64,000 bases of DNA from an uncultured Rikenellaceae bacterium (GTDB lineage Bacteria > Bacteroidota > Bacteroidia > Bacteroidales > VadinHA17): NCBI GenBank assembly GCA_964633505.1, contig CAZWHC010000001.1, forward strand, positions 596,015 through 660,014, written 5' to 3'. The stretch's first letter is position 1. Each line of letters begins with the position of its first letter. This document shows positions 3,211 to 56,943 of this stretch, one piece after another. The notes under the pieces were generated by a model. That model did not search any database. It saw only the letters and a program-made list of their open reading frames with translations, and had not been told where the DNA came from. The position numbers and the translations under genes are program-made.

Positions 3211-3322
3211 ACAGTATAACAATAATAAAAATAAAATATACAGATTAAAAATTTTAGGATTTATGAAACCGGAACGGTTGTATCCATGTCTAAAGGGTGA
3301 AATTAAACCAAAAAACACAGTC

Positions 3323-22119: not shown

Positions 22120-22650
22120 AATATGCGGTTACAGGTTGGAGGTTGCTGGTTGCTCCACCCTGCAGGCTGGCTCCTTCGCTAAAATGATCCACCGGATCAT
22201 TTCTTAACGCTTGGCCCGGTTGCTGGGTGTTGGTTATTTAGGTTCAAAGTTAAAAGTTCAAGGTTCAATGTTCAAAGTTCAAAGTTCACACTCCAACACC
22301 TGACACCCCTCACTCCTCATTCCTGACACCTGACTCCTGACTCCTGACTCCTCTTCTTCCTCACTACTCACTTCTCACTACTCATTCCTGTATGATAACC
22401 CACCCCCAACCCCTCCCGGGAGGGGATCTCCTGTACTAGTCACCACTCACTACTCACATCTTTTTTTCGCCACGGATGCACGAATTAAAGACGGATCTCC
22501 CCATCACCCCATCTCCACCTCACTACTCATTATCATTCCTGTATGATAACCCACCCCCAACCCCTCCCGGGAGGGGATCTCCTGTACTAGTCACCACTCA
22601 CTACTCACTACTCACTACTCAAATCTGCCCCAAGCCTGCGGCTTACGAAG
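22120..22650. repeat. mosaic word-repeat region
   Basis: Consecutive blocks of GGTTGCTGG, GTTCAAAG, CCTGACAC/CTGACTC and CTCACTACT words. A 74-bp direct repeat occurs at 22383-22456 and 22534-22607. The blocks recur at 33.0-33.4 kb and 50.1-50.7 kb. Confidence 0.85.
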
Positions 22651-22656
22651 CCTGCC

Positions 22657-23871
22657 TTATTTAAGCCTTACTACCATGAGCACCGGATTATCTGTCTCCT
22701 GAAGTCCCTCCGCCATCGTCTTAAACGATTGTTTTCTTTCCGGGGAATTTGCAGTTTTCTCATCAAACTCTTCATCTTTGATGATTTCCCTGAGTTCGAG
22801 CGGAGTGATCGGCATAAATATTTCATTGTCATTAACGGCTTTGACGGGCCAGAAATCCATGCCACCGTCCCAATCGTTAATAAACTTCGCCGGTTCGCCG
22901 GATTTATCTGTAAGAAAATTTCCGGTAAGAGTTGCTTTATCAAATAGTATATTCCTGTCGCCTTCACCTTTATAGTTCTGAGTTTTAATAAATATTGTCT
23001 TTCCAGCTTGCAGCACACTGGAAAAGAAATATTTGCCATTCTCACTCCGGAATCTCACAGCCGACTGGGGAGGTTCAGGCCTGAGTTCATCAGGCAGACG
23101 GAAAGCTCCAAGGTCAACAAAATAAACGGGTTTGATTTTATTGTCTGAAACAGTATAAACAGTATCATTATACATGCTCTTAAAGAAAGTCTGATTATTG
23201 TACTTATAAAAAGGGTGGAAGGCATGATAACCAATCATGCCGGTAATTCCCGTGGTATTAACCCATTTATAGTGATTTTTAACTGTGTTGACTGTATCTC
23301 CTTTTTCATTGGAGAGTAAATATAAATACTCCTCATTGCCTATTGCGCAGGCATAATAGGAAAGAAACTGGTCTTTATTCAAAACATGGATCCTGAAAAC
23401 GTCGGGAGGCCGCGGTACAGATTTAATGAATGTCCCGTCGAATGAAAAATACATAAGCTTACGGCTCCAGTTAGTCTGGATGATAATAAGCTTTTCATTT
23501 TCAAGGATTGAAATATAGGTGATCAGGTCTATTTCACCGGGACCTCTCCCCGGAGTCCCGATCTGGCGAACGAATTTCCCCGAATAATCAAATACAAGCA
23601 GCTGGTCGTAGTTCGCAACAAATATCAGGCTGTCGGAGAAATAATATTCGGGTCTTCCGGAAATCAGGTATTTGTCGCCGGTTTCCAACTGTATGTATTT
23701 TACCTCTGAAGCGATATCGCTCAGAAAGACTGTAGCTTTGTTTTTCAGCTCATTCTCATAATTGATCTCAAAGAATTTTTTCCCATCATTCTCCTCTTTT
23801 GATTTCGTTTTGTTATCACTGTTACAATGTGTTAACAGCAGTAATGAAACAAACAGTGCTATATTTCTCAT
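22657..23871 (-). CDS. lipoprotein, 6-bladed beta-propeller family (paralog 1 of 11)
   Basis: Lipobox 'LLTHC'. Family motifs 'VKYIQLET', 'GRGPGE' and the tail 'ETDNPVLMVVRLK'. It resembles the Bacteroidales '6-bladed beta-propeller / BF3164-type lipoprotein' group (from memory). Confidence 0.7.
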   Translation of the reverse strand: MRNIALFVSLLLLTHCNSDNKTKSKEENDGKKFFEINYENELKNKATVFLSDIASEVKYIQLETGDKYLISGRPEYYFSDSLIFVANYDQLLVFDYSGKFVRQIGTPGRGPGEIDLITYISILENEKLIIIQTNWSRKLMYFSFDGTFIKSVPRPPDVFRIHVLNKDQFLSYYACAIGNEEYLYLLSNEKGDTVNTVKNHYKWVNTTGITGMIGYHAFHPFYKYNNQTFFKSMYNDTVYTVSDNKIKPVYFVDLGAFRLPDELRPEPPQSAVRFRSENGKYFFSSVLQAGKTIFIKTQNYKGEGDRNILFDKATLTGNFLTDKSGEPAKFINDWDGGMDFWPVKAVNDNEIFMPITPLELREIIKDEEFDEKTANSPERKQSFKTMAEGLQETDNPVLMVVRLK

Positions 23872-25354: not shown

Positions 25355-25560
25355 AATTGTCTTGCAAGTCATGCAAGTCGTTCAAGTCATGCAAGTCGTG
25401 CAAGTCAGGCAAGTCGTGCAAGTCTGGAACTGGTTTTATGGACCTTCAAGACCTGCATGACCTGCAAGACCTGCATGACCTGCAAGACTTTCTTCCCCTG
25501 CTCTCATCCCTTCGCTCTTCGCCCTTCGCCCTTCGCCCTGCGCCCTGCGCCCTGCGCCTT
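25355..25560. repeat. mosaic word repeats (CATGCAAGTCG x~8; GACCTGCA x5; CCCTTCGC x4; CCTGCGC x4)
   Basis: Read directly from the sequence. It overlaps the last ~41 codons of the RND ORF 25436..28582. Confidence 0.85.
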
Positions 25561-28500
25561 TATAAATATACCAGTACGCCAGCGGTATAAAGAACAGACT
25601 CACGATTGTACCCAGCGACATTCCTCCTATCAGCGCCAGCGCCATCGGACGCTGAAGCTCCGAACCCATGCCTTCGCTGAACAGTATCGGCGCCGTCGAG
25701 AACAATGAGGCCATCGCCACCATAATGATTGGCTTCAGCCTCCTGGAGCCCCCTGTATAGATAGCTTCCTTAAGCCCCAGGCCTTCGGCCCGGAGGTTGT
25801 TGATAGTATCGACCTTAAGTATTGAGTCGTTGATTATAACCCCCGACATTACTATCAGCCCGATCATGGTTATAATGTTGATGGTCCCGCCCCAGATCAG
25901 GACAAGCAGAAGCGCGCCGGCAATATCTATGGGGATCTCGAGCAATACTATAAGGGGCTGGGTAAGCGATTCAAACTGGGCAGCAAGGATGAAATAGAGC
26001 AGGAGCAGGGCTACTGCAAGTATTACAGCGAGTTCCCTGAACAGCTTCTGACCTGTAATAAGCGATCCGCTGAAGCTTACATTAAGATCCCGGTCAGGCG
26101 GAACCAACTTCCTTATCTCTCCGGTAAGCTCCGACGGCCTGTTTGTGTTGATATTGAGGTAAACTGGAACAAACTCGCCGTTCATACCTCCCCTGATAGT
26201 CTTGTAATCATGTATCCTCTGTACATTTATAAGCTCCTTTACAGGTATCATCCGGCCGTTTTTGCTTATTACAGTTTCTGTCGAAATAATATCGCCAACC
26301 TGTTTTTCCATATCCGAAAGGACTATCGGGAGGATCTCATACGACGCCCTGAGTTCGCCTATGTTATACCTGTTGAGTGATGCTTTGAGCGTATTGTAAA
26401 GAGTGGCCGGCTCTACATCATACAGCAACAGCCTGTCGGGATCGATCTTCAGAAGTATCTTGTCTTCAAGGGGAGGATTCGATATGCCGGCTCCGGGCCA
26501 CTGTTCCTTCATCCTGGAGACTATTCCGGTCATGACATCAACAGGAGGCACTTCTTTTTCCTTCATCAGGCTTACTTCAGCCACGAGAGGAGGTTCAGAA
26601 GCCGAGAAAATCTTTTCGAATATATTCTCCTGGGCGGCAATGTTTACAGTTGCTCCGGGCCATCTCCGGCCTGTCAGGTCAAGTAATTCCCTGCCAAGCT
26701 CTTCCTGTGCCCTGTAGTCCTTTGCTTTTATATATACCTTTGCCTGGGTGTACGACTGGTCATAGTCGCGGTTAAAGAGGAACTGCTGTTCCCCAATGAA
26801 TGAGTTGGTCTGTAATATCAATTTACCCATCGACGCGGTCATCATTTTTATCCTTTCCAGGTTTTCCTGAAGCTCTATATTCTCGTTCCAGTCGACTGAT
26901 ACCACGAGTTCATCCTGTTTTATTGCCGGAAACCTCTCCTTTTCAAGGGTGAAGAAAAGGAAGATCATCAGAAGGATTATCAGGCCAAATGTTATCATAA
27001 CAGCCTTCCTGTACCTGAAAAAGAAATTCATGCCTCCTTCGTATTTCTCTTCCAGGCGTTTCAGGCTGATCTTCCTTACAAAACGTGTCAGTATTCCCTC
27101 TTTCCCATTTTTATACAGAAGGTAATATATTGTGGGAAGCAGTGTTATTCCTACCAGCAGCGAGACTCCCTGGCCAATTACAATTGCAATAGCCTGGTCA
27201 TAAAACAACGCTCCCGAAATGCCGCTGAGAAAAATAAGAGGGATAAACACTGCACATGTGACAAGGACCGATGAGATCAGAGGAGTTATAATTTCGTTTG
27301 TGCCTTTAACACATGCCTCCGGAAGTGTCAGTCCCCTGTCGATCCATTGCGTTATGTTCTCAATTACAACAATTGAATTGTCGATCATCATCCCGATGCC
27401 AAGTATAAGACCGGCGAGGGAGATTATATTTATCGACAATCCGGTGAGATAAAAGAACAGCAGGCTTATGACAAGCGTTGCCGGTATGCTGAATCCGATA
27501 ATAAGCGGAGATTTCCCGTCCTTCAGGAAAAAGAACATAAGCAGGAAAGCCAGCAGTCCTCCTGCAAGCAGACTCTGCCACAGGTTCGATATCGAATAAT
27601 CGAGCAGTCTAGTCTGGTCCTGCGATATCTCAAATTCCATCTGGGGATAATCCTTCCTGAAAACATCGAGAAGCTCTGTCATCTTCGTCTCCAGCGAGGC
27701 CATCCTTGCCGTTGATTCCTTTATTATAGCAAGAGCTATGGCTCTTTTACCATTTGAATAATAAACACCCCGCGGCTGTTCCTGTCTGATCCCCACCTCG
27801 GCAATATCTTTCATCTGAATTATCCGGCTCCCTGTCCTGATATAAATATCCCTCACATCATTCAGGTCCTTCAGATATGAGCTGAACTCGAGATTATAAA
27901 GGTATTTGCCGTCTTTTACCAGGATGCTGCCGATATTTATATTGTTGATCTTTACTGCGCCGGTAATGTCATCATCGGTTAGACCGAGGCTGTTCATCTT
28001 TTGCCTGTCGGGACTTATAAATATCTCCCTTTTTATCTGTCCGGTTATGTCAGCCATCCCAACCTCGGGAAGCTGTTCTATCCTTTTCTTGATGACTGTC
28101 TCGGCAAATTCGCTCAGTTCGATGAATTTCTCATCGCCGGCCATGGTGTCGGCCAGCGTGATGTTAAGCATGAACACCGGTATATCCGTGGCACTTGCCT
28201 TTATTATCCTTGGTCTTTCAAGGTCGTTGGGGAGGTAGTTCATCGCTCCGTCGACTTTTTCGTTTACCTCCATGAATGCAAGGTTGATGTCGTTCCCGAA
28301 TTTGAACGAAAGTCTTATGAGTGCGCTTCCGTTGCGTGATTCCGATTCAATGCGGTCAATGCCCTGTACCTGCAGGAGGTTTCTGCGGAGTATCGATACC
28401 ACGCTGTTCTCAAGCTCCCTGGCGCTTACATCAGGCCGCGAAACAGCAACTGTTATCTCCGGAATATCTATGTCGGGCATCAGCGATACCGGCAACCGGT

Positions 28501-28582
28501 TCGAGGCCACTATTCCCAGCATCAGCAATGCCAGAAAGGTCATTATGACTGCTACGGGCCTTGTTATAAGAAATTTTACCAC
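25436..28582 (-). CDS. RND efflux transporter permease (AcrB/MdtC-like)
   Basis: 1048 aa with 12-TM RND topology. N-terminus 'FLITRPVAVIM'. The apparent GTG start lies inside a TTACCAC word. The C-terminal ~41 aa are encoded by word repeats. Confidence 0.85.
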   Translation of the reverse strand: MVKFLITRPVAVIMTFLALLMLGIVASNRLPVSLMPDIDIPEITVAVSRPDVSARELENSVVSILRRNLLQVQGIDRIESESRNGSALIRLSFKFGNDINLAFMEVNEKVDGAMNYLPNDLERPRIIKASATDIPVFMLNITLADTMAGDEKFIELSEFAETVIKKRIEQLPEVGMADITGQIKREIFISPDRQKMNSLGLTDDDITGAVKINNINIGSILVKDGKYLYNLEFSSYLKDLNDVRDIYIRTGSRIIQMKDIAEVGIRQEQPRGVYYSNGKRAIALAIIKESTARMASLETKMTELLDVFRKDYPQMEFEISQDQTRLLDYSISNLWQSLLAGGLLAFLLMFFFLKDGKSPLIIGFSIPATLVISLLFFYLTGLSINIISLAGLILGIGMMIDNSIVVIENITQWIDRGLTLPEACVKGTNEIITPLISSVLVTCAVFIPLIFLSGISGALFYDQAIAIVIGQGVSLLVGITLLPTIYYLLYKNGKEGILTRFVRKISLKRLEEKYEGGMNFFFRYRKAVMITFGLIILLMIFLFFTLEKERFPAIKQDELVVSVDWNENIELQENLERIKMMTASMGKLILQTNSFIGEQQFLFNRDYDQSYTQAKVYIKAKDYRAQEELGRELLDLTGRRWPGATVNIAAQENIFEKIFSASEPPLVAEVSLMKEKEVPPVDVMTGIVSRMKEQWPGAGISNPPLEDKILLKIDPDRLLLYDVEPATLYNTLKASLNRYNIGELRASYEILPIVLSDMEKQVGDIISTETVISKNGRMIPVKELINVQRIHDYKTIRGGMNGEFVPVYLNINTNRPSELTGEIRKLVPPDRDLNVSFSGSLITGQKLFRELAVILAVALLLLYFILAAQFESLTQPLIVLLEIPIDIAGALLLVLIWGGTINIITMIGLIVMSGVIINDSILKVDTINNLRAEGLGLKEAIYTGGSRRLKPIIMVAMASLFSTAPILFSEGMGSELQRPMALALIGGMSLGTIVSLFFIPLAYWYIYKGAGRRAQGEGRRAKSEGMRAGEESLAGHAGLAGHAGLEGP

Positions 28583-28602: not shown

Positions 28603-28687
28603 AACCACGGAGTCACACGGAGTAAGTACGGAGTTTCACGGAGTTAAAACAGTGGAACTCCGTTTTTACTCCGTGTAACTCCGTGGT
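28603..28687. repeat. 85-bp near-perfect palindrome of CACGGAG words
   Basis: 'aaccacggagtcacacggagtaagtacggagtttcacggag..ctccgtttttactccgtgtaactccgtggtt'. It spans the junction of the two RND permease genes. Confidence 0.85.
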
Positions 28688-32968: not shown

Positions 32969-33035
32969 GGCAAACTACTTTGGTTAGTCAGGACATTAAC
33001 GAAATTTAAATTTATGTAATAATAATGATAATGAA

Positions 33036-33425
33036 AAGGGGAGGGGACTATTTTTTCGGCAAAAAATCAGCTGGTAAAAAGGCAAAGGGCAGGGAGCGGA
33101 GGGCAGAGGGCAAGAGATGAGATATGAGATTTGAGTAGTGAGGTGGAGATGGGGAGATGGGGAGATGGGGTGATGGGGAGATCCGTCCTTAATTCGTGCA
33201 TCCGTGGCAAATGAAAGTTGGCAGTCGGCAGTTGGCAAAAAAAAGGAGTCAGGAATGAGGTGTGAGGGGTGGGGTCAGGTGTGTGAACTTTGAACCTTGA
33301 ACCTTGAACTTTTAACTTTGAACCTAAATAACCAGCACCCAGCACCGGGCCGAGCGTTAAAAAATGATCCGGTGGATCATTTTAGTGATGGAGCCGGGTT
33401 GTAGGGGAGCAGCACCCGGCACTTG
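33036..33425. repeat. mosaic word-repeat region (largely the reverse complement of 22.2-22.5 kb blocks)
   Basis: Contains the rc copy of 'gccacggatgcacgaattaaagacggatctcccc', plus GGGGAGATGG, TGAGTAGTGAGG, TTGAACCTTGAAC and CCAGCACCCAGC words. Confidence 0.85.
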
Positions 33426-34721
33426 TTATCTTAATATACTTCTCAACGGCTTTATCAGCCTGAATATAAGCCTGCTGTTGTCTGTTATTATATCTGCCGT
33501 TCCGGTCATCTCGTTTATAAAGCCAAGGTTAATTCCATATGTCGATCTCAAACCGTTCACAAGATCAATCTCCGCTATATAATTATCCCCAACGGGTACA
33601 AGCGATAAGGTGCTGATCTTCCCTTTTAGAACTCCATATTCCATGTAAGGAAATCCCGAGAGCTTAATATTAACTTCCTGACCGGTTTTTACTTTTCCGA
33701 GTCCTGATGCCTGAACGTTTGCCCTAACAATTATCCTGCTCGGATCATCAGGAATTACAGTTGCAAGTATTTCTCCTGCCTTTATTACCTGATTGATGTT
33801 CCAGTAACTTGTAAAGGTTATCCTTCCTTTTACCGGACTTTTGATCAGGTATTTCTCTTTCCACTGGTCAATCGCCAGTGAAAGCATCTTAAAGGAATCA
33901 TCGAGGTCGAGCTTATACTGATGCAGTTCCTTTTCAAGCTGTACAAGAAGATCAAGCCTTGTCTCCTTCATCTTCAAAGCCGTTGATTCATTGTTCTTAA
34001 TGGAAGCCCTTAGAGAGCTGTGCGCGGATTTTTTCTGTATCAATGCCTGCTTCGACCTTTCATATTCGCTTAGGGTAACCGAATGCAGTTTACTGTAATA
34101 CAACACCGAATCGCGCTCATAGCTTCGCAAGACTAGATTGAGATCTTCTGCCGACAGCTTCTCCTGGTTTAGAAGCTCTGCAGTGTATTCATTTTGTTTC
34201 CTGATTTGCTGGTCAAGTAGTTTTAGCTTTGAATGAATGTAAGACTGCCTGAGATATTCCCTGAACTGAAAGAAATATGTCAAAAACCGGGAATAGCTTG
34301 TCTGAATTTCACCTATTGACAGTTCTTCAGGCGGAGCATATTTTGTAACATCATTCTGCCAGTCCTGATTGGCTTCAAGAGTGTCAAGAAATGCAACCAG
34401 GGCAAGTATATCATTATATTCGGCAGTATTTTCAATTAATGCCACAGGCTGGTCAGTCACAATATCCGATCCGTTGCTTACGATAAGTTTTTCTATTTTA
34501 CCTCCCGATTTTGCAACCAGCGGGGCAGGGGAGTTATAGGTTGTAATAGTTACAGGAGCAGTAACTACATCCGGATAATTGATAAACCATGTCACCCCGA
34601 GTATAGCCACGATAATGGCAAAAAAGAGAAACAATCCCCATCTCAGGAAGCTTCCCGGGATCTCCGACATTACTTCCTGCAACTCCGGGCTTCGGATTTC
34701 GTGTTTGACGATTTCGGACAT
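33426..34721 (-). CDS. HlyD-family secretion adaptor (bacteriocin/type I exporter partner)
   Basis: 431 aa with an N-terminal TM and a long coiled coil between lipoyl-like halves. It lies directly downstream of the C39-ABC transporter. Confidence 0.8.
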   Translation of the reverse strand: MSEIVKHEIRSPELQEVMSEIPGSFLRWGLFLFFAIIVAILGVTWFINYPDVVTAPVTITTYNSPAPLVAKSGGKIEKLIVSNGSDIVTDQPVALIENTAEYNDILALVAFLDTLEANQDWQNDVTKYAPPEELSIGEIQTSYSRFLTYFFQFREYLRQSYIHSKLKLLDQQIRKQNEYTAELLNQEKLSAEDLNLVLRSYERDSVLYYSKLHSVTLSEYERSKQALIQKKSAHSSLRASIKNNESTALKMKETRLDLLVQLEKELHQYKLDLDDSFKMLSLAIDQWKEKYLIKSPVKGRITFTSYWNINQVIKAGEILATVIPDDPSRIIVRANVQASGLGKVKTGQEVNIKLSGFPYMEYGVLKGKISTLSLVPVGDNYIAEIDLVNGLRSTYGINLGFINEMTGTADIITDNSRLIFRLIKPLRSILR

Positions 34722-34734
34722 AGTCTTTGTCTTA

Positions 34735-34802
34735 TGCGCAGGGCACAGGGCTCAGGGATATTTAGGTTTTGCTCTGTGCTCTGCGCTCTGTGCTCTGTGC
34801 TT
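34735..34802. repeat. word repeats (GCAGGGC / CTCTGTGCTCTGCG)
   Basis: Same word family as the in-frame insert at 36711-36875. Confidence 0.8.
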
Positions 34803-37169
34803 TTAATTTCCCAATTCCAGCTGATCCCTCACCAAATTATAATACGCTCCTTTCTTTTCAACAAGTTCCTTATGTGTTCCGGTTTCGGCTATTTCTCCTT
34901 TTTCAAGAACAACTATCTGATCAGCATTCTTTACCGTACTTAACCGGTGAGCTACAATCACGACTGTTTTTCCTTTGAAGAATGTGCCAAGATTATCCAT
35001 TATTGTCCTTTCGTTTGTTGCATCCAGAGCATTTGTAGCTTCGTCGAAAAAGATAAAATCAGGTTCCTTGTAGACTGCCCTTGCAATCAGAAGTCTTTGC
35101 TTCTGGCCGGTGCTCAGTCCCTGGCCATCGTTCCCGATCCTGGTATTGTATCCCAGAGGAAGACTGTCGATATACTCCTTTATATTTGCAGTCTCTGCCG
35201 CCCTGTCTGTCTTTTCCTTATCGGGCATATCATCGGCAAGACCAATATTACCTGCTATCGAATCGGCGAAGATATAGCCTTCCTGCATCACAACGCCGCA
35301 TCTCTTTCTCCATTCTGCCTGGCTGAACCTTTTAAGGGAAGTACCGTTGAGTGATATCTCTCCTTTTACAGGCTCATAGAATCCCAACATCAGTTTTAAA
35401 AGCGTTGTCTTGCCGCTTCCGCTGATACCGACAATTGCAGTGATCTTTTTCGCAGGAATTGTAAGTGAAACGTTGTTTAGCACTTTTTCGGAATGAGGTC
35501 CTTCGTACTGGAAAACCAGGTTCCTTATTTCAACATCCTTATCAGCAGGAATCTCTCTTATCTTATCATCCTCAGGTTTCTCCTCATCCTCCTTATTATG
35601 GATCTCGCCTAATCGTTCGAGACTTATCCTTGCATCCTGTGCTGCCTGGGTAAAGCCTATGAATTGCTGAATCGGAGCATTAAGCTGTCCGATAATGTAT
35701 TGTATTGCCATCATCATACCGAGGGTCATCTGGCCTTCTATTACAGCTTTAGCTGAAAGGAAGGAGATAAAGATATCCTTGGTTTGGTTTATCAGAACGG
35801 CTCCAAGCTGCTGGTTCTGGTTAAGCATCATGCTTTTCAGGCTCACCTTGAAAAGCTTTATCTGTATCCTTTCCCATTCCCAACGTTTCTGCTTCTCGCA
35901 GCTGTTGAGTTTTATCTCCTGCATACCTGTTACAAGCTGGACTATATTGCTCTGGTTGGCCGCGCTCTGCTGGAAACGTTTGTAGTCGAGCTCTCTCCTT
36001 CGTTTAAGAAAAAGCACCACCCAGCCGATGTACATCGCACTTCCCAGCATGAAAATACCAAGGATCCCAAGATTATATGTTGCCATTATTATCGTGTACA
36101 TAACCAGGGTAATAACAGCAAAAATGATACTTATCAGGGAATCAGTAAGAAAAGTCCTGATCCTGTTATGATCTCCTATTCTTTGCATAATATCGCCGAC
36201 AAGCTTCACATCGAAGAATGAGATCGGGAGCTTCATCAGCTTAATTAGGAAATCAGAAATGAGAGAAATGCTTACCCTGCTTGTTACGTGAAGGCTTATC
36301 CAGTTGCGCAGGAGCCCGTTTGCGGTCTGACTGAGTGTAAGTATAAGCTGGGCAACAAGTACCATCACCACAAATGAAATATTACTGTTTCCAATACCTG
36401 TATCGACTAGCGACTGTGTTAGAAAAGGGAATATAAGACTGATTATGCTGGCAGTGAGCATGCCCAGCATAAGTTGCAGGATGTATTTTGAATAAGGACG
36501 TATATAACCAAGAAGGTAAAGGAAGCTTAGTTTTTGTTTTTCCTCATCTTCCTGTTTATAGAACTCGGGAGTTGGTTCGAGCAATAAAGCTGTTCCCTCA
36601 TCCACCCCGTCGCTTTTGGTGCTGAACCAGCACTTACAAAACTCACGTTCGGTGTATTTAAGAAGACCGGCGGCGGGATCTGCAACATAAACAACATATT
36701 TTGAGTCTTTTTGCCTTGTGCGATTTTGCTCAGGGCTCAGGGCGCAGGGCTCAGAGGAAGAAGGCTCAGGACGCAGTGCGCTGGGCTCAGAGGGCTTTGA
36801 AATCTGCTCAAGGCTTTGGGGTTTTGCTCTGCGCTCTGTGCTCTGAGCTCTTTGCTCTGTGCTCTGCGCTCTGCGCTTCTTGATTTTATACACCACCACG
36901 AAGTGTCTCTGATTCCAGTGCACAATGCACGGTAGTGGCACTTCATCGCAGAGCTGTTCCCATGTGAGTCGGTAGCCTCTTGTACGGAAGCCTATGCTTT
37001 CGGCGGCATCACTGATGCCAAGCATTGAGACTCCCGATTTTGTTATGAATGATTTTGAACGGAGACATTGTAATTGATATGATTTTCCATAATATTTTGC
37101 AACCATGCGAAGGCATGATGGACCGCAATCCATAGAGTCGAGCTGCCTAAAAAGTGGAAACTCAGGCAT
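34803..37169 (-). CDS. C39 peptidase domain-containing ABC transporter (double-glycine leader processing/export)
   Basis: 788 aa. C39 catalytic Cys in 'QLDSMDCGPSCL' and His in 'QRHFVVVY'. Six TM segments. Walker A 'GISGSGKTT', signature 'LSTGQKQR', Walker B 'FIFFDEAT'. Confidence 0.9.
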   Translation of the reverse strand: MPEFPLFRQLDSMDCGPSCLRMVAKYYGKSYQLQCLRSKSFITKSGVSMLGISDAAESIGFRTRGYRLTWEQLCDEVPLPCIVHWNQRHFVVVYKIKKRRAQSTEQRAQSTERRAKPQSLEQISKPSEPSALRPEPSSSEPCALSPEQNRTRQKDSKYVVYVADPAAGLLKYTEREFCKCWFSTKSDGVDEGTALLLEPTPEFYKQEDEEKQKLSFLYLLGYIRPYSKYILQLMLGMLTASIISLIFPFLTQSLVDTGIGNSNISFVVMVLVAQLILTLSQTANGLLRNWISLHVTSRVSISLISDFLIKLMKLPISFFDVKLVGDIMQRIGDHNRIRTFLTDSLISIIFAVITLVMYTIIMATYNLGILGIFMLGSAMYIGWVVLFLKRRRELDYKRFQQSAANQSNIVQLVTGMQEIKLNSCEKQKRWEWERIQIKLFKVSLKSMMLNQNQQLGAVLINQTKDIFISFLSAKAVIEGQMTLGMMMAIQYIIGQLNAPIQQFIGFTQAAQDARISLERLGEIHNKEDEEKPEDDKIREIPADKDVEIRNLVFQYEGPHSEKVLNNVSLTIPAKKITAIVGISGSGKTTLLKLMLGFYEPVKGEISLNGTSLKRFSQAEWRKRCGVVMQEGYIFADSIAGNIGLADDMPDKEKTDRAAETANIKEYIDSLPLGYNTRIGNDGQGLSTGQKQRLLIARAVYKEPDFIFFDEATNALDATNERTIMDNLGTFFKGKTVVIVAHRLSTVKNADQIVVLEKGEIAETGTHKELVEKKGAYYNLVRDQLELGN
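36711..36875. repeat. in-frame low-complexity word-repeat insertion inside the C39 domain
   Basis: About 55 codons ('RAQSTEQRAQSTERRAKPQSLEQ...EPCALSPEQNRTRQ') lie between 'HFVVVYKIKKR' and 'DSKYVVYVADP'. The DNA consists of GCAGAGC/CAGGGC words. Confidence 0.8.
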
Positions 37170-37177
37170 AACCGTTA

Positions 37178-38362
37178 CTATTTTAAACTTACCAGTACCA
37201 GAACAGGATTATCTGTGGCTTTCAAGCTATTTGCCAGCCTTTCAAGTTCTTTTTTCTTCTCGAGGTATTTTGGTGTTGAATTCTTAAATGCATCAGTTGC
37301 AACATAGGTTTTAAGTGAAAGCGCTTCAATCCATGTGACAAATGTGTTGTCATTTTTTATGGTTTTTGGCAAAATATTGGGTCCTCCATCCAAATCATTA
37401 ATTATTCCCTTTTCTGAAGAAAATAACATTCCTGATATATTCTTTTTGGAACTGATAAATGTTAAACCTTCTTCATCTTTCCCATTAATAGAATATATAA
37501 ATTCATAAAATACATATTCTTTGGTTTCAAATAAATTCATAGGTGTAATAAAGTGTTTGGCTAAAAAATTTGCCGTAGATGTATTCCTTGCGTTTGGTGT
37601 TAGTCGAAGGTTACCTACATCAATAATTAAATAAGGTTTAAAGGTCCTATTTGAGAAAAGAAATACGGTATCGCAATATATTTCTTTCTTTAATAGCTGG
37701 TTGTTGAAACGATAGAAAATATTCTCATACGGATAAGTTAATGAGGGTTTTGCAATTTTTTCCCATTTATATCTGTTTGGAAAAGACTTGATATTTTTTC
37801 CGGTTGTATCGATAAAATTGTAGCTATTTTCTACATTAGCCGCATTATTTTCATTATAGCATAGTATTCCATCATTTGTTATTTTGAACTGAACAGCCCC
37901 AATTAGTGGGCTCTTAAAGGTTCTCATAAGTTTACCACCTTTATTATATACCAGGAACTTTCTCAACCATCCATCAACTATATAAATCGATTCATTTTGT
38001 GGATTAATATCAATATCATGAGCCGTTGTAATTTCACCTGGCCCCCTGCCTTCACTTCCAATTTTGGATACAAATGAACCATCATATAAGAACATATTGA
38101 TTTCAGTAGAATTATTGTTTGTTAAGAAATAACTTCTGCTAAAAACTACCTTTCTAATCCGTGAAATAATACTTTGATCCGAAGTTTCCAATGGGATATA
38201 CCGAATATCGATTGCACCCAAATCAGATAATTTTACATCAACCTTTTTAGGTAATTTTCTTAAATCAATTTTTATAGGTTGACATTCTGTAGTTAAGGAC
38301 AAAATCAGCCAATTTATTAATAGCGTTACCAACAGAATTCTGATTCTTAATAAAGTAAGCAT
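37178..38362 (-). CDS. secreted 6-bladed beta-propeller family protein (paralog 3)
   Basis: Motifs 'IRYIPLET' and 'GRGPGE' with tail 'ATDNPVLVLVSLK'. Its stop is 8 bp before the ABC transporter start. Confidence 0.7.
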   Translation of the reverse strand: MLTLLRIRILLVTLLINWLILSLTTECQPIKIDLRKLPKKVDVKLSDLGAIDIRYIPLETSDQSIISRIRKVVFSRSYFLTNNNSTEINMFLYDGSFVSKIGSEGRGPGEITTAHDIDINPQNESIYIVDGWLRKFLVYNKGGKLMRTFKSPLIGAVQFKITNDGILCYNENNAANVENSYNFIDTTGKNIKSFPNRYKWEKIAKPSLTYPYENIFYRFNNQLLKKEIYCDTVFLFSNRTFKPYLIIDVGNLRLTPNARNTSTANFLAKHFITPMNLFETKEYVFYEFIYSINGKDEEGLTFISSKKNISGMLFSSEKGIINDLDGGPNILPKTIKNDNTFVTWIEALSLKTYVATDAFKNSTPKYLEKKKELERLANSLKATDNPVLVLVSLK

Positions 38363-38461: not shown

Positions 38462-39922
38462 GTCGATCCTTAGAAAATCAGAATTTATAATATTCTAACT
38501 GGATCTGATATTTCCAGACCAGTTTTTCAATAATTTCATTTAAGACACAGATAACCGATTCACGGATTTTCTGTAGCATCTTCATCATATTGAATGCTGC
38601 TCCAGCCAGAAGCGTGTTAATCATGTCACCTTCAACACCTTTGAGATAATTTCTGAGCATCCGGTGATCTTGTTTGATATGTCCAATGATTGGTTCTATC
38701 GATGCTCTTCTTCGGAACCGTTCTCTATCCATGGCTTTTTGATAAGCGGTTCTGCCTTTCCCAGAGCCTGGTATTTTTATATTGACTCCAAGAATGCTCT
38801 TTCGTCCCTTGCAACCTCTATCTACCAATGCTGTTTCAGGTAATTTGCCAATGAGATCTTCAACCTGCATAAGCTGAGGTTCAATAGCATGTCCGTCATA
38901 AATATTATCTTCAAATGCCAGAGCTCCAACCACTATTCCACTCTTTTTGGTCAAAGCAAAACAGCTTTTGTTCCCGAACTCGTATTTCTTATGTTCTTTA
39001 CCTTTTGAGATGCATTTTACTTCAGGTGCATGGAAGCTGTACAATTTATTTTTATCGTTCCTTTTCTGCCCCAGTACAAGAAGGTATAGCCACAACTGTT
39101 CATCATAACATGTTAACCTGTCACGCTCATCAAGATTACGTTCAACATCTCTCACCAGACGACCGGCAATGGTTTTAAGCTTTCGGGCTGCAGCATTTGC
39201 TTTCTTCATCCTTTTCGGATGTTCCCGGAACCTCTGGTCGATCATTAACTGTTTTACTATCCGGGTATAACGTTGGCGCAGCTTTATGTTCTCTTTTTCA
39301 GCTATTTTCAGGCATCCTTCTATTATCTTTCTATGAAGCTTAGAGTCGGTCGGGAATGTTATGTTTTTCTCCTGGACAGTGGTGTCAATCAGGATTTCTT
39401 TCTCATGGACTTCTTTGGATTCGAAGAGGCTTATGCTGAGTTTTAATATTTTCTGTGCTCCTTCTTCACCGATACGTTTACGGAAGTGTACAAAATCACT
39501 CGGATCATACGGCTTATCATATTGAAAGTAAACTTCTCCACATAAGTATTGCCAATACGGATTTTCAATCCATCGTTCAACAAATGTTTCATCTCCAAGA
39601 TTATACATCTGCTTCAGCAACATACTGCCAACCATCTTTCTTATTGGAACCGCTGGTCTTCCAAGCTCTGGGTAATAAACTGAGAACTCTTTCTCCACTT
39701 TTTCCCAGTCAATTTTCTGAGCCAGAATGACAAGTTCATGCTCCATATTGATGATATTTACTAAGGGAATGCGAAAGACATTCAGTTGCGGATTTCTTGG
39801 AATTTTTCCTTTCATTTTGCAAGGTTTTTATCGAATTTACTGATTACCTTGCAGATAATCAAAATATTTTATGAACATTAATTGTTAATAATCAACACGT
39901 TAACCACTTTTTAAGGATCGAC
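38462..39922 (-). mobile_element. IS5-family insertion sequence (1461 bp)
   Basis: Imperfect terminal inverted repeats GTCGATCCTTA(G/A)AAA. The direct repeat TACTTA lies at 38456-38461 and 39923-39928. There is a single transposase ORF. Confidence 0.85.
38478..39815 (-). CDS. IS5-family DDE transposase
   Basis: 445 aa. The N-terminal InsH/DUF772-like region ('ELGRPAVPIRKMVGSMLLKQMYNLGDE') and the C-terminal 'RASIEPIIGHIK' are typical of IS5/IS4-superfamily transposases. Confidence 0.85.
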   Translation of the reverse strand: MKGKIPRNPQLNVFRIPLVNIINMEHELVILAQKIDWEKVEKEFSVYYPELGRPAVPIRKMVGSMLLKQMYNLGDETFVERWIENPYWQYLCGEVYFQYDKPYDPSDFVHFRKRIGEEGAQKILKLSISLFESKEVHEKEILIDTTVQEKNITFPTDSKLHRKIIEGCLKIAEKENIKLRQRYTRIVKQLMIDQRFREHPKRMKKANAAARKLKTIAGRLVRDVERNLDERDRLTCYDEQLWLYLLVLGQKRNDKNKLYSFHAPEVKCISKGKEHKKYEFGNKSCFALTKKSGIVVGALAFEDNIYDGHAIEPQLMQVEDLIGKLPETALVDRGCKGRKSILGVNIKIPGSGKGRTAYQKAMDRERFRRRASIEPIIGHIKQDHRMLRNYLKGVEGDMINTLLAGAAFNMMKMLQKIRESVICVLNEIIEKLVWKYQIQLEYYKF

Positions 39923-40096: not shown

Positions 40097-40306
40097 TCAA
40101 ATAATGCATTGCCATACACCCCAACCACCCCATTTATTATAACAATCAGTATTACAATCGTATGGGGTTGATTGAATATACTCTGTTCCTCCTCCTACAA
40201 TATGGCATTCACAACATGTAGAATCATATCCTCCTTTTAAGGTAACTAATTCTTCATGGTTCATTAATTTTTCAGAATTGATCTGCAATTTATTAAGCTT
40301 TTTCAT
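40097..40306 (-). CDS. double-glycine-leader, Cys-rich precursor peptide 1
   Basis: 69 aa. The 26-aa leader is 'MKKLNKLQINSEKLMNHEELVTLKGG'. The 43-aa core has 6 Cys and starts 'YD'. Confidence 0.85.
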   Translation of the reverse strand: MKKLNKLQINSEKLMNHEELVTLKGGYDSTCCECHIVGGGTEYIQSTPYDCNTDCYNKWGGWGVWQCII

Positions 40307-44700: not shown

Positions 44701-46326
44701 TTAATTAACAACCTCTGCTTTTATACTTCTTTCCTCTTTTTCCTTAAAAATCTCCTTGAAATACCTTAGATCATCAATCTCATATTGAGCCGGGAGTTTG
44801 TAACCGTTAATGAAAAAAGTCGGTGTGCCCATTACATTACACTCCTTAAAAAGTCTTCCGTTTTCTTTATTAATTTCAGCTGAAATATCATCAACTTCAG
44901 GAATACAAAGGCCTTCTGTGATCTTTGTCCTGGAATAGGGATCCGCGTTAAACCATTGCTCCAGCAGTTTTATTGATTCCAATTCTCTACCTTGCCTGTT
45001 ATTGTTAAAAAGTGTAGCGAGCATTTTGTTGTCGGATGTTACAAGAAGAAGATTTACAAGTATATCTTCATTTTCATTGAGCATGCTAAGGATTTTCTCA
45101 AAAGCCCTTGCACAATGTGAACAGTGCAGACTGAGAAATGCTGTTATCCTGATCGAAGCATCCCTGTTACCGAAAATCAGACTGCTCTCCGATAATGGAA
45201 TTTCATAGTGAGGCTGATTCATCAGAAGCATCCTGAGAATGTCAGGATTCTTCTTAAACCCGAGATATTTATAATAATGCATTTCACCCGACATTTGCTC
45301 CCTCCGGAATAATATATACAGGGTATATATTATTGTTATTACAAGCAAAGTAAGTACAAGCCTTGTAACAGAATCAAAAGCAAAGGTCAGCTGTGATAAC
45401 TGAGGTAACAATAAAATGAATTCTATAATCAGGATAAGTTGAACACCAAGACACATTGGACACCACTTATTCAGAACAACTCCCTGGTAATAAATTGAGA
45501 AGAGGGGATAGGGTACTGAAAGGGAGGCAAGTATTGCCATCAAAGAAAGACCTTCTCTCCCAGGGGATTGTAAAATAAATAATAAACCTACTGTAAAATA
45601 TATAAATCCGACGTCGGCCCATCCGAACCACCCGAATACCTTTGATGCTTTATCATGAAGAACTGTATTGCAGTTTGTTGCCTTGTTCAGATGACAAAGC
45701 TTGTCAGTAATGGAAAGATGAACTTCAAATTCGTGCAGGATCAGCAGAACAGAAAGTACAATGCCGGCAATTTTTGTAAAAACCAGCGGCAGGATTACCT
45801 TATTGTAAATAATCCCGCCTACGGCAAAATTATTGTAATACAGAGAAATGATAAAAATCAAAACAGCAATTAAAGCCAGAGGCATTACTGATTTATTTAT
45901 CAGTTCATTCTTTATTTTGGTCTGATAATCCTTTTCTCCTGATCGCTGATCCGGGTTAAGCAGTATTACTGCGCCGGAACAGCTCTCAAGAAACTCTTTC
46001 CTGACGGTTTTTCTTTTTTCATTGTATGATGTAAAATATGTAAACTGCTCCTTCCCCGTCTCGGTTACAAATCCTATCATGCCGCCGCCTCTGCTGAAAT
46101 GGACGATATACGGCGCTTGAAGATCCTCCAGTTCTTTTAATTCATACCTGAGAGGATAGTTTTCAATTTTCCATTCATTGAGGGTATCGCAGATACTTTT
46201 AAAAGACGGGTAATCAGGATGTGATTTAAGCGCTTCCTTTACGGTACCTTTTACGACATGTAATCCATAATGTTTTACGGCACGTTGAATGATGCCGACA
46301 GTATTATCTTCCCTGGCCCGTTTCAT
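44701..46326 (-). CDS. C39-like domain / vitamin K epoxide reductase (VKOR) / thioredoxin-fold fusion protein
   Basis: 541 aa. The N-terminal ~130 aa are C39-like but lack the catalytic Cys. The TM core has loop Cys 'KLCHLNKATNC' and the membrane CxxC 'WCPMC'. The C-terminal Trx/DsbA-like domain has CxxC 'HCSHC'. Confidence 0.75.
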   Translation of the reverse strand: MKRAREDNTVGIIQRAVKHYGLHVVKGTVKEALKSHPDYPSFKSICDTLNEWKIENYPLRYELKELEDLQAPYIVHFSRGGGMIGFVTETGKEQFTYFTSYNEKRKTVRKEFLESCSGAVILLNPDQRSGEKDYQTKIKNELINKSVMPLALIAVLIFIISLYYNNFAVGGIIYNKVILPLVFTKIAGIVLSVLLILHEFEVHLSITDKLCHLNKATNCNTVLHDKASKVFGWFGWADVGFIYFTVGLLFILQSPGREGLSLMAILASLSVPYPLFSIYYQGVVLNKWCPMCLGVQLILIIEFILLLPQLSQLTFAFDSVTRLVLTLLVITIIYTLYILFRREQMSGEMHYYKYLGFKKNPDILRMLLMNQPHYEIPLSESSLIFGNRDASIRITAFLSLHCSHCARAFEKILSMLNENEDILVNLLLVTSDNKMLATLFNNNRQGRELESIKLLEQWFNADPYSRTKITEGLCIPEVDDISAEINKENGRLFKECNVMGTPTFFINGYKLPAQYEIDDLRYFKEIFKEKEERSIKAEVVN

Positions 46327-48409: not shown

Positions 48410-49510
48410 CTAATAACTCACTTTTGTATCATTGAATAATTCGCACTGAGTCCTTGCTTTGTCTCTGTGCCCTTGTGCCCTGAGTAAACCTAACGCCAGT
48501 CCTGCAAGGCCAGTAAGACCCAAACCTTGCTCGTTTATGTTTTCAAGTCGCTTATTCCAGTTATTTTCATTATCAATAAATGAAAATATTTCTTCGAATT
48601 GAAAAACCGCTCCTGCTCCATCTAATATATAAGGACCATAAACCAACTTCTGCCATGCGTTTTTGATGAAATCTGTAACATCTGTTTCATCCGGCAGCTC
48701 CTTATGAGCTTTTTCACTTTCAATTTTATCAACCTTACTTTTAAGAATATCCTTTACAGTATTATCTTTAACCGATTCTATTGACTTTTCAACAAGCCTG
48801 AGCAAAAGTGTGCGACCGGCAATGTCGTGTGAATCATGTATTTCCTTTTCTATATATACCGGAACTGACCTGAAGATTTTTTCAGTTTTTACCGGGAAAA
48901 TATTGAGTTTTTGGATCTCCAGAAGAAACCATAGAATTGAATTGAAGGAATTGATTGTCAATTCTTCAATATTGAATCTTGTATATGATTTTTGCTCCAG
49001 AAGTCTCTCACATTCATCAGTAAGAAAAATCAAATGATATTTCTTAATCAGTGTATTCAGGTCGTTATCATCAATTTCATGACCCAATATTCTGGCAATA
49101 TGATAAAAACCATAACCAAAAAGGTCATCACCTGTGTTAAGCAGGACAGGGCTATTGATTCTATGTTTATAAATTACATTATCTATTTCTTCAAGCGTTT
49201 CATCAGTGTCAGCCTGAACAAAACCATTCTTAACAAGGTATTCAATTCCCCAGCCTATACCGGTAAGGCCGTTTTCAAAGTTTACAGGTGTCGAAATATT
49301 TATTTCCTCATATATCTCATCAACGAGCTCGCCTGCATAATTTTCATATATCTTATTCTTTGAGAATCGTGAATAATTATAAAAGAAAATTGCAATGCCC
49401 ATTTTGCCGTTCAGAAGCCCCTGATTGTCAAGAAAGCTTGCATTCAGAAGAAGGACGTTTGCAATGCGTTGTAACCGGTCCCCGATCATTTTGTTCAAAG
49501 ATAAATCCAC
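48410..49510 (-). CDS. LanC-like repeat protein lacking Zn-ligand residues
   Basis: 366 aa. LanC-style Gly-rich helical-repeat turns are present ('GLLNGKMGIAIFF', 'GLTGIGWGIEYL', 'GLTGLAGLALGLL'). There are only 2 Cys and no WCxG/CHG motifs. Confidence 0.45.
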   Translation of the reverse strand: MDLSLNKMIGDRLQRIANVLLLNASFLDNQGLLNGKMGIAIFFYNYSRFSKNKIYENYAGELVDEIYEEINISTPVNFENGLTGIGWGIEYLVKNGFVQADTDETLEEIDNVIYKHRINSPVLLNTGDDLFGYGFYHIARILGHEIDDNDLNTLIKKYHLIFLTDECERLLEQKSYTRFNIEELTINSFNSILWFLLEIQKLNIFPVKTEKIFRSVPVYIEKEIHDSHDIAGRTLLLRLVEKSIESVKDNTVKDILKSKVDKIESEKAHKELPDETDVTDFIKNAWQKLVYGPYILDGAGAVFQFEEIFSFIDNENNWNKRLENINEQGLGLTGLAGLALGLLRAQGHRDKARTQCELFNDTKVSY

Positions 49511-49616
49511 GTCAGTCCCGTTAATTTAAAATTCTTTAAAAACCACAGATCAGACATTATTTCAAATAAAGTTCAACAATTGTATTGATATAATTGCAGG
49601 AAAAAGTCAGAAAAAA

Positions 49617-49676
49617 GTTGCCAGAAGTTGCCAGATATTGCCAGAAGCTGCCAGAAGTTGACAGAAGTAGACACCG
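49617..49676. promoter_or_regulatory. six tandem 10-bp units (GTTGCCAGAA-like) between the HTH gene and the biosynthetic operon
   Basis: gttgccagaa/gttgccagat/attgccagaa/gctgccagaa/gttgacagaa/gtagacaccg. The same array recurs at 59890-59949. Confidence 0.5.
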
Positions 49677-50735: not shown

Positions 50736-50739
50736 ATAT

Positions 50740-51779: not shown

Positions 51780-52240
51780 ATAATACCAAGGGAGGAAGTT
51801 TTGAACTCCCCCCTTTCTGTCAGGAAAAGGTCCGGACCACTGGCCCAGGGCGAGGGGCGGAGGTCAGGCTTCGTAAGCCGTAGCCTTCTTCGGAATCCGA
51901 AGCATTTGCGAAGGATTCGGCGAAGGCTTGGGGCGGGAAGCAGAGAGGAGTGCAAAGATACGGGAGATATGAGATATGAGATTTGAGTAGTGAGTAGTGA
52001 GGAAAGAAGAATGAGGAGTCAGGTGTCAGGTGTCAGGAATGTGGATTTTTGATTTCTCTGCGTAACTCTGCGATCCCGAAGCATCGGGACTGCGAAAGTC
52101 TGCGAGATAGGTTTTTGTGTTTCAACGGTACAATGTTTCAGGGTTTTACTGTTTTTAGGACAAGCACCCAGTTTTGCTACAGTATTTCTTCGGAAACTGA
52201 AGCTTTAATGATGGGATTCAGTGAGGATTAGCCCCGGCTT
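51780..52240. repeat. mosaic word-repeat region, including a degenerate leader-element copy and a ~190-bp diverged copy of 50255-50445
   Basis: 51808-51860 resembles hairpin 1 plus GGTCCGG of the leader element. 52045-52235 parallels 50255-50445 block by block. Confidence 0.75.
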
Positions 52241-56586: not shown

Positions 56587-56943
56587 CTAAAGCCTCAGTT
56601 TCCGAAGAAAGCTGCGAAGTGCAAAGCTTGCACGACCTCTTTCTCTCCGTTTCTTAATCCTGTACACCACAACGAAGTGTCTCTGGTTCCGTTCCGCCAC
56701 GCACGGCAGTGGCACCTTGTCGCAAAGTTGTTCCCAGACAAGGCGGTAGCCGCGGGTACGGAAACCAATGCTTTCGGCGGCATCGGTGATACCAAGCATT
56801 GAGACGCCTGATTTTGTTATGAATGATCTGGAACGGAGTGATTGTAATGTGTAAGATTTCCCATAATACCTGGCTATCATACGAAGACTGGATGGGCCGC
56901 AATCCATAGAATCCAGCTGCTTAAAATATGGGAATGCAGGCAT
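56587..56943 (-). pseudogene. truncated C39-ABC transporter paralog (C39 N-terminal ~100 aa only)
   Basis: The first 100 aa are roughly 85% identical by eye to 34803..37169. After 'VVVYRIKKRR' the ORF runs into word-repeat sequence and stops. Confidence 0.8.

Follow-up and report, generated by a model that had tools for sequence, protein, structure and literature searches.

A hairpin-forming repeat in the C39 protease domain of a Bacteroidales peptide exporter, probably an in-frame copy of a dispersed post-stop element

REP sequences and REPINs are reportedly short hairpin-forming extragenic repeats that lie near gene ends, are dispersed and serve as targets of some insertion sequences (IS); REPINs are said to be fixed-sequence doublets that are mobilised by RAYT transposases and excluded from open reading frames (ORFs). 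Rickettsia palindromic elements (RPEs), in the portion of PMC10969869 that summarises Ogata 2000/2002, are palindromes of about 100-150 bp present in many copies, which lie in frame inside conserved genes and add tens of residues to the product. Proteins that carry an RPE remain functional, and the extra peptide presumably lies where the fold is left undisturbed (same portion of PMC10969869). The heptamer TAACTGA forms intergenic direct repeats in Beggiatoaceae, cyanobacteria and some Bacteroidetes, according to the sections on these groups in MacGregor 2015 (PMC4679880). The present report concerns a 64,000-nucleotide stretch of DNA (here the window, positions 596,015 to 660,014 of contig CAZWHC010000001.1, assembly GCA_964633505.1) from an uncultured Rikenellaceae bacterium. 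A gene for a peptidase-containing ATP-binding cassette transporter (PCAT) in the window has an array of heptamer words inserted in frame in its C39 protease domain. The probability is, in our estimate, about two in three that this insert is an in-frame copy of a dispersed, hairpin-forming repeat that normally follows stop codons in an uncultured digester Bacteroidales lineage, and that it occupies a permissive hairpin tip of the C39 domain.

The exporter has a Peptidase_C39 domain, a six-helix ABC_membrane domain and an ABC_tran domain as defined by Pfam. The C39 match (PF03412, E 5.9e-30) aligns residues 4-100 with positions 2-99 of the 133-position profile, the membrane domain is PF00664, and the ATPase (PF00005) has both the Walker A motif GISGSGKT and the signature LSTGQ. 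The structures of PCAT1, ComA and LahT are all homologous to it, with an E-value of 6e-102 for PCAT1 (4RY2). Q9, C15, H89 and D164 are invariant across 66 homologues and align with PCAT1 and LahT. With a catalytic domain, a membrane domain and ATPase, and an adjacent HlyD-type gene, the protein is classed by its sequence as a PCAT of the C39 family. The features of this gene and its partner are as follows.

34803..37169, minus strand: PCAT-type exporter gene, intact, 788 residues (Pfam, structure homology, dN/dS)
36903..36905, minus strand: codon of catalytic His89, base of the first strand of the hairpin (invariant in 66 homologues; His strand of PCAT1)
36696..36872, minus strand: in-frame insert, residues 100-158, 59 codons, 177 bp (structure alignment)
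36678..36680, minus strand: codon of catalytic Asp164, end of the second strand of the hairpin (invariant; VADP motif of PCAT1)
33426..34721, minus strand: HlyD-family membrane fusion protein gene, operon partner of the exporter, starting 81 nt downstream of the exporter stop (Pfam HlyD_3, E 1.2e-12)

The exporter reads HFVVVYKIKKR-RAQSTEQRAQSTERRAKPQSLEQISKPSEPSALRPEPSSSEPCALSPEQNRTRQKDSKY-VVYVADP around the insert. In the phmmer alignment PCAT1 runs through ...HFVVIYSIKNR to its residue 112, opposite residue 99 of the exporter, and continues with IITVADPGKG from its residue 113, opposite residue 159; the alignment with LahT (6MPZ) agrees on these boundaries. An earlier note on this DNA, made from the letters alone, had placed a word insert of about 55 codons at 36711-36875. 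Such an insert is indeed there, and alignment with the solved structures sets its bounds at residues 100-158, which have no counterpart in 4RY2, 6MPZ, 7N87 or the distant orthologues. By these alignments the insert lies at the tip of a beta-hairpin that joins the strand of His89 to the strand of Asp164. The reading frame and the downstream motifs are undamaged, as the earlier note had also said; the residues and motifs in place are C15, H89, D164, Q9, GISGSGKT and LSTGQ.

Outside the loop, the ratio of nonsynonymous to synonymous divergence (dN/dS) against orthologues is 0.02-0.04 (dN 0.02-0.05, dS 0.65-2.5). These values show strong purifying selection and, with the intact motifs, point to a functional gene; they argue against the gene being dead. 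The insert-bearing gene is not an assembly artefact because the identical protein occurs on 4 contigs that were assembled independently. The insert itself differs in composition from its host, with 81% of its residues being P, E, S, Q, K, R, A or G versus 45% in the remaining protein. Only one of its three sense frames is free of stops, and this is the frame in use; its predicted peptides include AQSTEQR and PSEPSALRPEPSSSEPCALSPEQNR. In an AlphaFold model the insert has a pLDDT of about 28 and no secondary structure, the flanking strands (89-98 and 158-164) have a pLDDT of 80-85 and the C39 core 70-85. The dN/dS of about 0.03 outside the loop, and predicted disorder between two well-modelled strands, support the suggestion that the insert is tolerated. 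It had also been called a surface loop, and both its place at the surface and its disorder are predictions only.

The DNA of the insert is a long imperfect palindrome that is able to form a hairpin. On the coding strand seven CAGAGCN heptamers are followed by AAAACC, a spacer of about 40 nt, and GCCCTGN / CCTGAGC heptamers that are broken by CCTTCTTCCTCTGAGCC. With Tandem Repeats Finder, arrays of heptamers were found at 36826-36877 (7.4 copies) and 36728-36754. The units are imperfect; the seventh base varies, the first does so once, and no more than two neighbours are identical. The parts of the element in the window are listed below.

36826..36877, minus strand: arm 1, about seven tandem CAGAGCN heptamers, read as RAQSTEQRAQSTERRA (tandem repeat and pattern searches)
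36820..36831, minus strand: junction CAGAGCAAAACC, the end of arm 1 with the AAAACC spacer, common to the post-stop copy
36728..36790, minus strand: arm 2, GCCCTGN / CCTGAGC heptamers with the CCTTCTTCCTCTGAGCC module, complementary to arm 1
34735..34802, minus strand: second copy of the element, (CAGAGCR)4-AAAACC-TAAATAT-(CCCTGNG)3, directly after the exporter TAA and ending 13 nt before the HlyD start

Folding energies of the two copies, with z scores against shuffled sequences, were:

insert, sense: -62 kcal/mol, z -3.5
insert, antisense: -93.5 kcal/mol, z -5.3
post-stop copy, sense: -24.6 kcal/mol, z -6.6
post-stop copy, antisense: -40.5 kcal/mol, z -7.3

The antisense strand folds better than the sense strand because it has G.U pairs where the arms of the sense strand have A.C mismatches. 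It had been proposed that the insert is built of the same words as the intergenic repeat at 34735-34802. This was confirmed, as two patterns occur far above chance at both places. With at most one mismatch, CAGAGCNCAGAGC is found 9 times in the window (0.19 expected), exclusively in the insert and at 34771-34797, and GCCCTGNGCCCTG is found 8 times (0.09 expected), both the insert and the post-stop copy being among the sites. The two copies have the same order, strand and junction, and the internal copy lies 2.0 kb upstream of the post-stop copy. No significant Rfam match was found in 33000-37300, and a scan for canonical terminators gave none at the insert or the post-stop copy.

The element is not confined to this gene. 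Among metagenome contigs the same composite recurs, CAGRGC arm leading, 9-24 nt past the stops of unrelated genes, and copies begin 0-24 nt after stop codons in the window and in three comparison loci (L091, L097 and L112; such numbers are used where these loci have to be told apart). In the window and 36 loci, 97 arrays were counted. ORFs make up 76% of this DNA, 25 of the arrays are inside long ORFs, and 23 of these 25 are at the exporter loop; a further case is the C-terminal tail of an AcrB-like ORF. The insert appears, from its sequence, to belong to a dispersed repeat family of the genome and to be the same element as the post-stop copy.

When loop and post-stop DNA were compared, the word type of the loop was found to recur after the stop codon of the same gene in many lineages. 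The words common to both are:

window: CAGAGCR / CCCTGNG
L004/L005: CAGGGCN with the GAAGAAGCACAGGGC junction
L006: CAGGGAG
L013: nonamers GTCGTGCAA ... GACCTGCAA
L003 and L008: words in common likewise

A loop shares 8.6% of its 9-mers with the 200 nt after its own stop codon and 1.9% with those of other loci (permutation p 5e-5), and the sharing with its own array is on the same strand only. Sharing of 11-mers with whole flanks was tried and did not discriminate, as chance matches are frequent in long flanks and words are common between genomes; the comparison with the gene's own post-stop array took its place. Not only the repeated words are shared. The loop of L087 holds CAGAGCAAAACCTAAATATC, from the non-repetitive spacer of the window's post-stop copy, so that the spacer AAAACCTAAATATC recurs inside an orthologue's loop, and the post-stop copy of L088 holds GAGCCTTCTTCCTCTGAGCC, a module of the window's loop.

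An IS3-type IS of 1.4 kb, with a 131-residue orfA, an rve integrase and ends TGTCTTATCCTGAAA..., also links the two kinds of copy. Its positions are:

L088:3650-5064: in the post-stop copy
L124:5696-7110: in the loop copy
L105:5696-7110: in the loop copy

In the loop copies and in the post-stop copy the IS occupies the same position in the AAAACC spacer, with the same ends and the same ACC duplication, which suggests that it has target specificity for the hairpin loop of the element. A deletion from loop to post-stop array was first suspected in L105/L124 because the loop array there joins sequence that follows the post-stop array of L088. It was ruled out when tblastn found the gene resuming 1.4 kb further on, the interruption being the insertion of the IS in the spacer.

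Variation at the loop was surveyed across about 200 relatives, in database proteins and in genome loci. The 120 closest proteins are 75-100% identical and come from Bacteroidales metagenome-assembled genomes (MAGs). All of them carry something at the site, and the contents are never alike. Between the His and the start of the VADP motif the distance is 21 to 87 residues, and the loop words include RAQGTEQ, WGKGQGAG, KDKRQKDKDK, DLHDLQDLHD and EPCALSPEQ. In 80 genome loci the His-to-ADPA span differs with the identity to the exporter of the window:

span 19: Parabacteroides and some Bacteroidales, Tannerellaceae and Salinivirgaceae MAGs, 52-56% identity
span 23-35: Mariniphaga and relatives, about 60% identity
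span 33-85: the close digester clade, 70% or more identity

Loops of the close clade overall have 33-87 residues of heptamer and nonamer words, in contrast to the tight turn of the distant orthologues. A neighbour-joining tree of masked proteins has several independent expansions and sister genes with loops of 85 versus 34 residues. Loop content does not follow the gene tree. Longer loops tend to have flanks in which tandem repeats of period 7 to 11 are denser (rho 0.50, p 1e-4), a correlation that is indicative only, as the genomes are related. Older loops of 30-45 residues (PF..WGRAGDE, LPPWGKGRGRG, SPSGGGWEG, SFGKRGE) encode small near-perfect DNA stems such as CCCTGCCCCCCTGGGGGAAGGG and TCTTCTTCTTTTGGGAAGAGAGGAGA; most of these stems are not significant singly, although the pattern recurs, and the site seems to be prone to palindromes of several kinds. 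In one MAG (Loclat_bin-20678) there are at least three exporter paralogs (L015, L018 and L072) with loop spans of 42, 70 and 76 residues, two of which have the common architecture AWG - KDKRQK - DLHDLQ.

The segment is, by these comparisons, a derived, hypervariable site and not a conserved ancestral linker, given that distant orthologues have a tight turn and close ones never have the same content. The view that the repeats are actively gained, lost and replaced is likewise upheld by the spans (19 versus 33-87), the sister genes and the discordance with the gene tree.

Some inserts are also far too similar for the genes in which they are found. The exporter genes of the window and L001 align colinearly, without an indel, over 2,367 nt at 87.7% identity (dS 0.95), yet there are just two mismatches in nt 247-523; for the insert alone (nt 298-474) this has a P of 5e-9 at the average rate of the gene. 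Between the window and L088 (dS 0.52) the insert has 4 mismatches in 177 nt (P 1e-4), and mismatches in the flanks restart at nt 288 and 475, the edges of the insert. L087 is the gene closest to the window (dS 0.40), yet its loop is different and shorter. A freely evolving tract would be expected to differ by 37-54% at these distances, whereas the inserts are 98-99% identical. The simplest reading of these alignments is a recent transfer of the insert allele into genes that had already diverged, through homologous recombination or gene conversion.

Genes are also broken at this site. A second exporter gene in the window is reduced to a stub, ORF 56587..56943 on the minus strand, with 118 residues. 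Its parts and the block that its tail resembles are:

56644..56943, minus strand: C39 stub that corresponds to codons 1-100 of a second exporter gene; homology to the full gene stops at the 5' edge of the loop
56587..56643, minus strand: stub tail (ERGRASFALRSFLRKLRL*), an intergenic-type word block that includes one GTCGTGCAA nonamer
52184..52224, plus strand: intergenic word block, the closest match to the stub tail within the window (identical in 36 of 40 aligned columns, one gap among the columns)

Beginning at the start codon, the stub can be aligned with the full gene as far as AAGAARCGSAGAG (codons 99-100); beyond that it has about 60 nt of its own word tract before the stop codon. Similar word blocks also occur at 50390-50440. 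The earlier note had described this paralog as co-linear up to the edge of the loop and running into a different word block, and this description stands. Its further statement that one codon position is both insertion site and deletion breakpoint holds in that homology ends at the 5' edge of the loop, but the breakpoint was over-read. Since no two copies agree in loop content, colinearity ends at the loop edge, which need not be a breakpoint. The stub has changes at residues that are invariant or nearly so in the 66 homologues (W85R, H84E, E76K and C19S), and judged by these it is a decaying pseudogene. No further PCAT piece from the remainder of the second exporter was found in the window. 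A remnant of an exporter 3' end after the stub had been suspected by eye; the similarity was unsupported, the best local match being 11 nt.

Stubs and other breaks occur in relatives as well. The stub of L085/L086 has 99% DNA identity (dS 0.047) to the N-terminus of the full-length gene of L004, continues with about 110 nt of L004-type heptamer array and then passes into a nonamer array, and there is no exporter remainder in the next 4 kb. It is, on this DNA comparison, a recent truncation that is independent of the stub in the window. In L081-L083 a stub lies between two propeller genes, as it does in the window, and in L105/L124 the exporter gene is interrupted by the IS within the loop element. 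That the repeats take part in rearrangement, as had been claimed, is borne out by the stub of L085, joined to another array, and by the IS inside the loop element. In L084 the gene is split by a frameshift inside the loop and has a second frameshift in the ATPase domain, so that the frameshifts are a matter of sequencing error or of a dead gene. Protein searches with the 118-residue stub and with the insert peptide gave only short proteins; such a search seems to gather candidates near the query in length, so that the apparent abundance of stubs is not meaningful. Many 'C39-only' proteins of 90-200 residues among database matches P0121-P0240 end inside the loop on short contigs, and assembly breaks at the repeat inflate the apparent number of stand-alone C39 proteins.

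How could a repeat that belongs after stop codons come to reside in the protease domain of an exporter? In the reading that we favour, the element consists of complementary arms, (CAGAGCR)n and (GCCCTGN)n, that flank a spacer containing AAAACC, and its usual home is a few bases past stop codons in sense orientation. Some 10 residues of each strand separate the tip of the hairpin from the residues of the active site. Because the tip is away from the active site and the frame in use is free of stops, the element could be translated as a disordered loop of 59 residues with little harm. The comparisons suggest that the site is a long-lived permissive landing pad. Arrays there would grow and shrink by slippage or block duplication, and would be overwritten by gene conversion or template switching from the post-stop array and from other alleles, with selection retaining only variants that are free of stops and have a length that is a multiple of three. 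The element would also make the gene fragile, as recombination with other arrays and the IS that targets the spacer would cut it at the loop and leave C39 stubs like 56587..56943. More speculatively, the codons of the turn, AAG AAG CGC AGA G, look like the 5' flank that the element usually has together with its first word (AAAAGCACAGAGC), a likeness that may offer microhomology for copying to start at this position.

Several points weigh against this reading. All the comparison sequences are metagenome assemblies, and repeats are where assemblers fail or form chimeras. The permutation and correlation tests count related genomes as independent. Many database stubs are contig ends, and only stubs checked on long contigs were used. 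The full-length AlphaFold model is poor (mean pLDDT 49, pTM 0.30) and was used solely for a local view of the C39 domain; both the translation of the insert and its disorder are predictions, and a hydrophilic, disordered loop is probable to that extent. The loops of L004, L005 and L026 are pure tandem arrays with a folding z of about 0. The idea that hairpin potential is a property of every loop was rejected, as several orthologous loops have such a z, and because some loops are non-palindromic the term hairpin element describes the allele of the window and not the whole phenomenon. The loop words of L001 are unlike its own post-stop array, (CAGGGAG)6, which is a counter-example to local homogenisation; the difference would follow from the recent import of the insert allele into L001. 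Finally, copying by gene conversion or template switching, and the neutrality of the loop, are what we infer.

Other explanations were considered. A selfish palindrome might spread without a transposase, with hairpin-induced breaks repaired from a post-stop, allelic or paralogous copy so that the element homes into this codon and sweeps through diverged exporter alleles. If true, such homing repair would explain inserts that are 98-99% identical inside genes with a dS of up to 0.95, and we regard it as unlikely. More speculative still is that array-ending C39 stubs could be silent donor cassettes, in which the array is a 3' homology anchor for shuffling the leader-binding N-terminal half of the protease.

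Somewhat less likely is a private low-complexity expansion, in which local slippage acts on the purine-rich KKRR codons and the likeness to intergenic arrays reflects a common mutational bias. Slippage or unequal exchange would account for the single internal block of about 75 nt that distinguishes L004 from L005, and some loops consist of tandem arrays only and have no hairpin potential. Among repeat units, heptamers are the most frequent in many bacteria (Mrazek 2007, cited in the part of PMC4679880 on repeat units). Against this explanation, both loop and post-stop copies carry the non-repetitive modules AAAACCTAAATATC and CCTTCTTCCTCTGAGCC and have the same IS target position. Two further observations speak against it: loop words co-vary with the post-stop words of their own gene, and near-identical inserts are found in alleles with a dS of 0.5-0.95.

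It is improbable that the loop is a selected, functional one, that is, an adaptive linker that tunes protease access, partner binding or exporter regulation and is diversified by selection on the protein. All members of the close clade keep some extension, the frame is never lost, and the loose motif PF..WGRAGDE is common to loops of intermediate length. That motif, however, is the product of a DNA hairpin that is rich in C/T and then in G/A, e.g. CCCTTCCCC-N-GGGGAAGGG. Neither sequence nor length is conserved even between sister genes, and composition follows the DNA word present, the same words being found in untranslated DNA. Orthologues and the solved PCATs work with a tight turn. Characterised PCATs have the C39 domain in the cytoplasm, so that nothing obvious would press it to diversify.

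A classical miniature inverted-repeat transposable element (MITE), placed by a single transposase insertion, is equally improbable. The size of about 150 bp, the inverted arms and the dispersed copies fit, and in-frame insertions of MITEs and RPEs are known (the pertinent part of PMC10969869). Against this, no target-site duplication was seen around the insert, the post-stop copy or the four extragenic copies in L091, L097, L102 and L112. The number of units in the arms varies among copies, copies have a fixed place after stop codons and are not random, and the content of the site turns over piecemeal. A phase-variation switch in which heptamer slippage toggles full-length and truncated exporter is very improbable: a unit of 7 is not divisible by 3 and the gene of L084 is frameshifted inside the loop, but the units are imperfect with at most two identical neighbours while known contingency tracts are long and perfect, L084 has its second frameshift in the ATPase domain (sequencing error or dead gene), and relatives differ by large blocks and word replacements, not by plus or minus one unit.

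The surroundings of the exporter and the remaining arrays of the window deserve description in their own right. The upstream neighbour of the exporter is one of many genes for six-bladed DUF5128 propellers. ORF 40097..40306 (minus strand) encodes a Cys-rich peptide of 69 residues with ...LVTLKGG and has a weak Bacteriocin_IIc match (E 0.009) that is below the cut-off; a DUF772-family transposase gene (38478-39815, minus strand) lies between the exporter operon and this candidate double-glycine peptide gene. The surroundings 37178-63966, with 40097-40306, resemble a large bacteriocin-type locus. This locus holds at least seven confirmed or likely DUF5128 propeller paralog ORFs as well as a VKOR-thioredoxin fusion (44701..46326), a glycosyltransferase, a LanC-like protein (48410..49510) and a TonB-C protein.

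The window has a second translated array, which is a C-terminal extension. The ORF of an AcrB-like pump (25436..28582, minus strand) continues for about 40 codons beyond its Pfam domain through word arrays at 25436-25565. Its tail, GAGRRAQGEGRRAKSEGMRAGEESLAGHAGLAGHAGLEGP*, comes from CCCTTCG/CCCTGCG heptamers and GACCTGCAA nonamers. The loop word DLQDLH is the translation of the nonamer GACCTGCAA/GACCTGCAT, which is arrayed at 25441-25488. A large modular intergenic element has three copies (22200-22660, 33050-33430 and 50380-50760), one of them inverted. Its core ATCCGTCYTTAATTCGTGCATCCGTGGC has 3 matches versus 0 expected, and the different heptamer and octamer arrays around it (GGAGATGG, GTGAGTA, AGGTGTC, TGAACCT and CCAGCAC) follow one order in all copies. 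Other hairpins, with arms made of tandem copies of a different word, lie at 28606-28685 (CACGGAGTNA ... NACTCCGTG) and 3111-3213 (CCTTTGTG ... CACAAAGG), and palindromes with tandem-array arms seem to be a general design in this genome. A decamer array of five to six AAGTTGCCAG units has two copies (49597-49673 and 59878-59936), each followed by ACACCGTCC and a T run, and has no inverted partner.

If the favoured reading is right, in-frame coding palindromes, best known from Rickettsia, occur also in free-living Bacteroidales. A post-stop element with tandem-array arms would have colonised one structurally permissive hairpin tip and would evolve there in concert with its extragenic copies. The beta-hairpin between the two catalytic strands appears to accept 0 to about 70 extra residues, which may be useful for the engineering of PCAT exporters. 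Repeat-driven gene conversion, allele mosaicism, IS targeting and gene truncation come together at one defined site, which makes it a possible study system. For metagenomics, assemblies and gene calls break at the loop and leave many spurious 'C39-only' proteins in databases. A limited literature search found no description of such a feature in PCAT exporters of Bacteroidales.

The exporter itself resembles the solved PCATs (PCAT1 4RY2/6V9Z, ComA 3K8U/8HF4 and LahT 6MPZ) in domain order, in the catalytic Cys, His and Asp with the Gln, and in its HlyD-type partner. The solved proteins run from ...IKNR directly into IITVADP, whereas the protein of the window has 59 extra residues between those strands. 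Among repeats, the element is like REP sequences and REPINs in that its extragenic copies are hairpins near gene ends, are dispersed and are targets of an IS; it differs in having arms that are tandem arrays of variable unit number and in having one copy inside an ORF. A MITE would have a target duplication and a contingency locus a long perfect tract; the element has neither. The TAACTGA repeats, in the sections of PMC4679880 that describe them, are similar as lineage-specific heptanucleotide tandem repeats that are abundant between genes, Bacteroidetes included. Those sections deal with a single word, mostly as direct repeats just upstream of starts and with a proposed regulatory role, and neither complementary-word hairpin pairs nor placement inside ORFs is among what they describe. 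The closest likeness is to RPEs as they are presented in the portion of PMC10969869 cited above, since in both cases a palindromic repeat with a long hairpin lies in frame in a conserved gene under purifying selection. RPEs, however, have a fixed sequence and are found in dozens of unrelated genes, whereas the arms here are tandem heptamer arrays, the usual home of the element is just after stop codons, 23 of the 25 intragenic arrays are at one coding site, the content of that site is hypervariable and exchanged between alleles, and the host belongs to the Bacteroidales. By analogy the insert would resemble RPEs in function and yet fall outside that group, set apart by description through its one site, its tandem-array arms and its home after stop codons.

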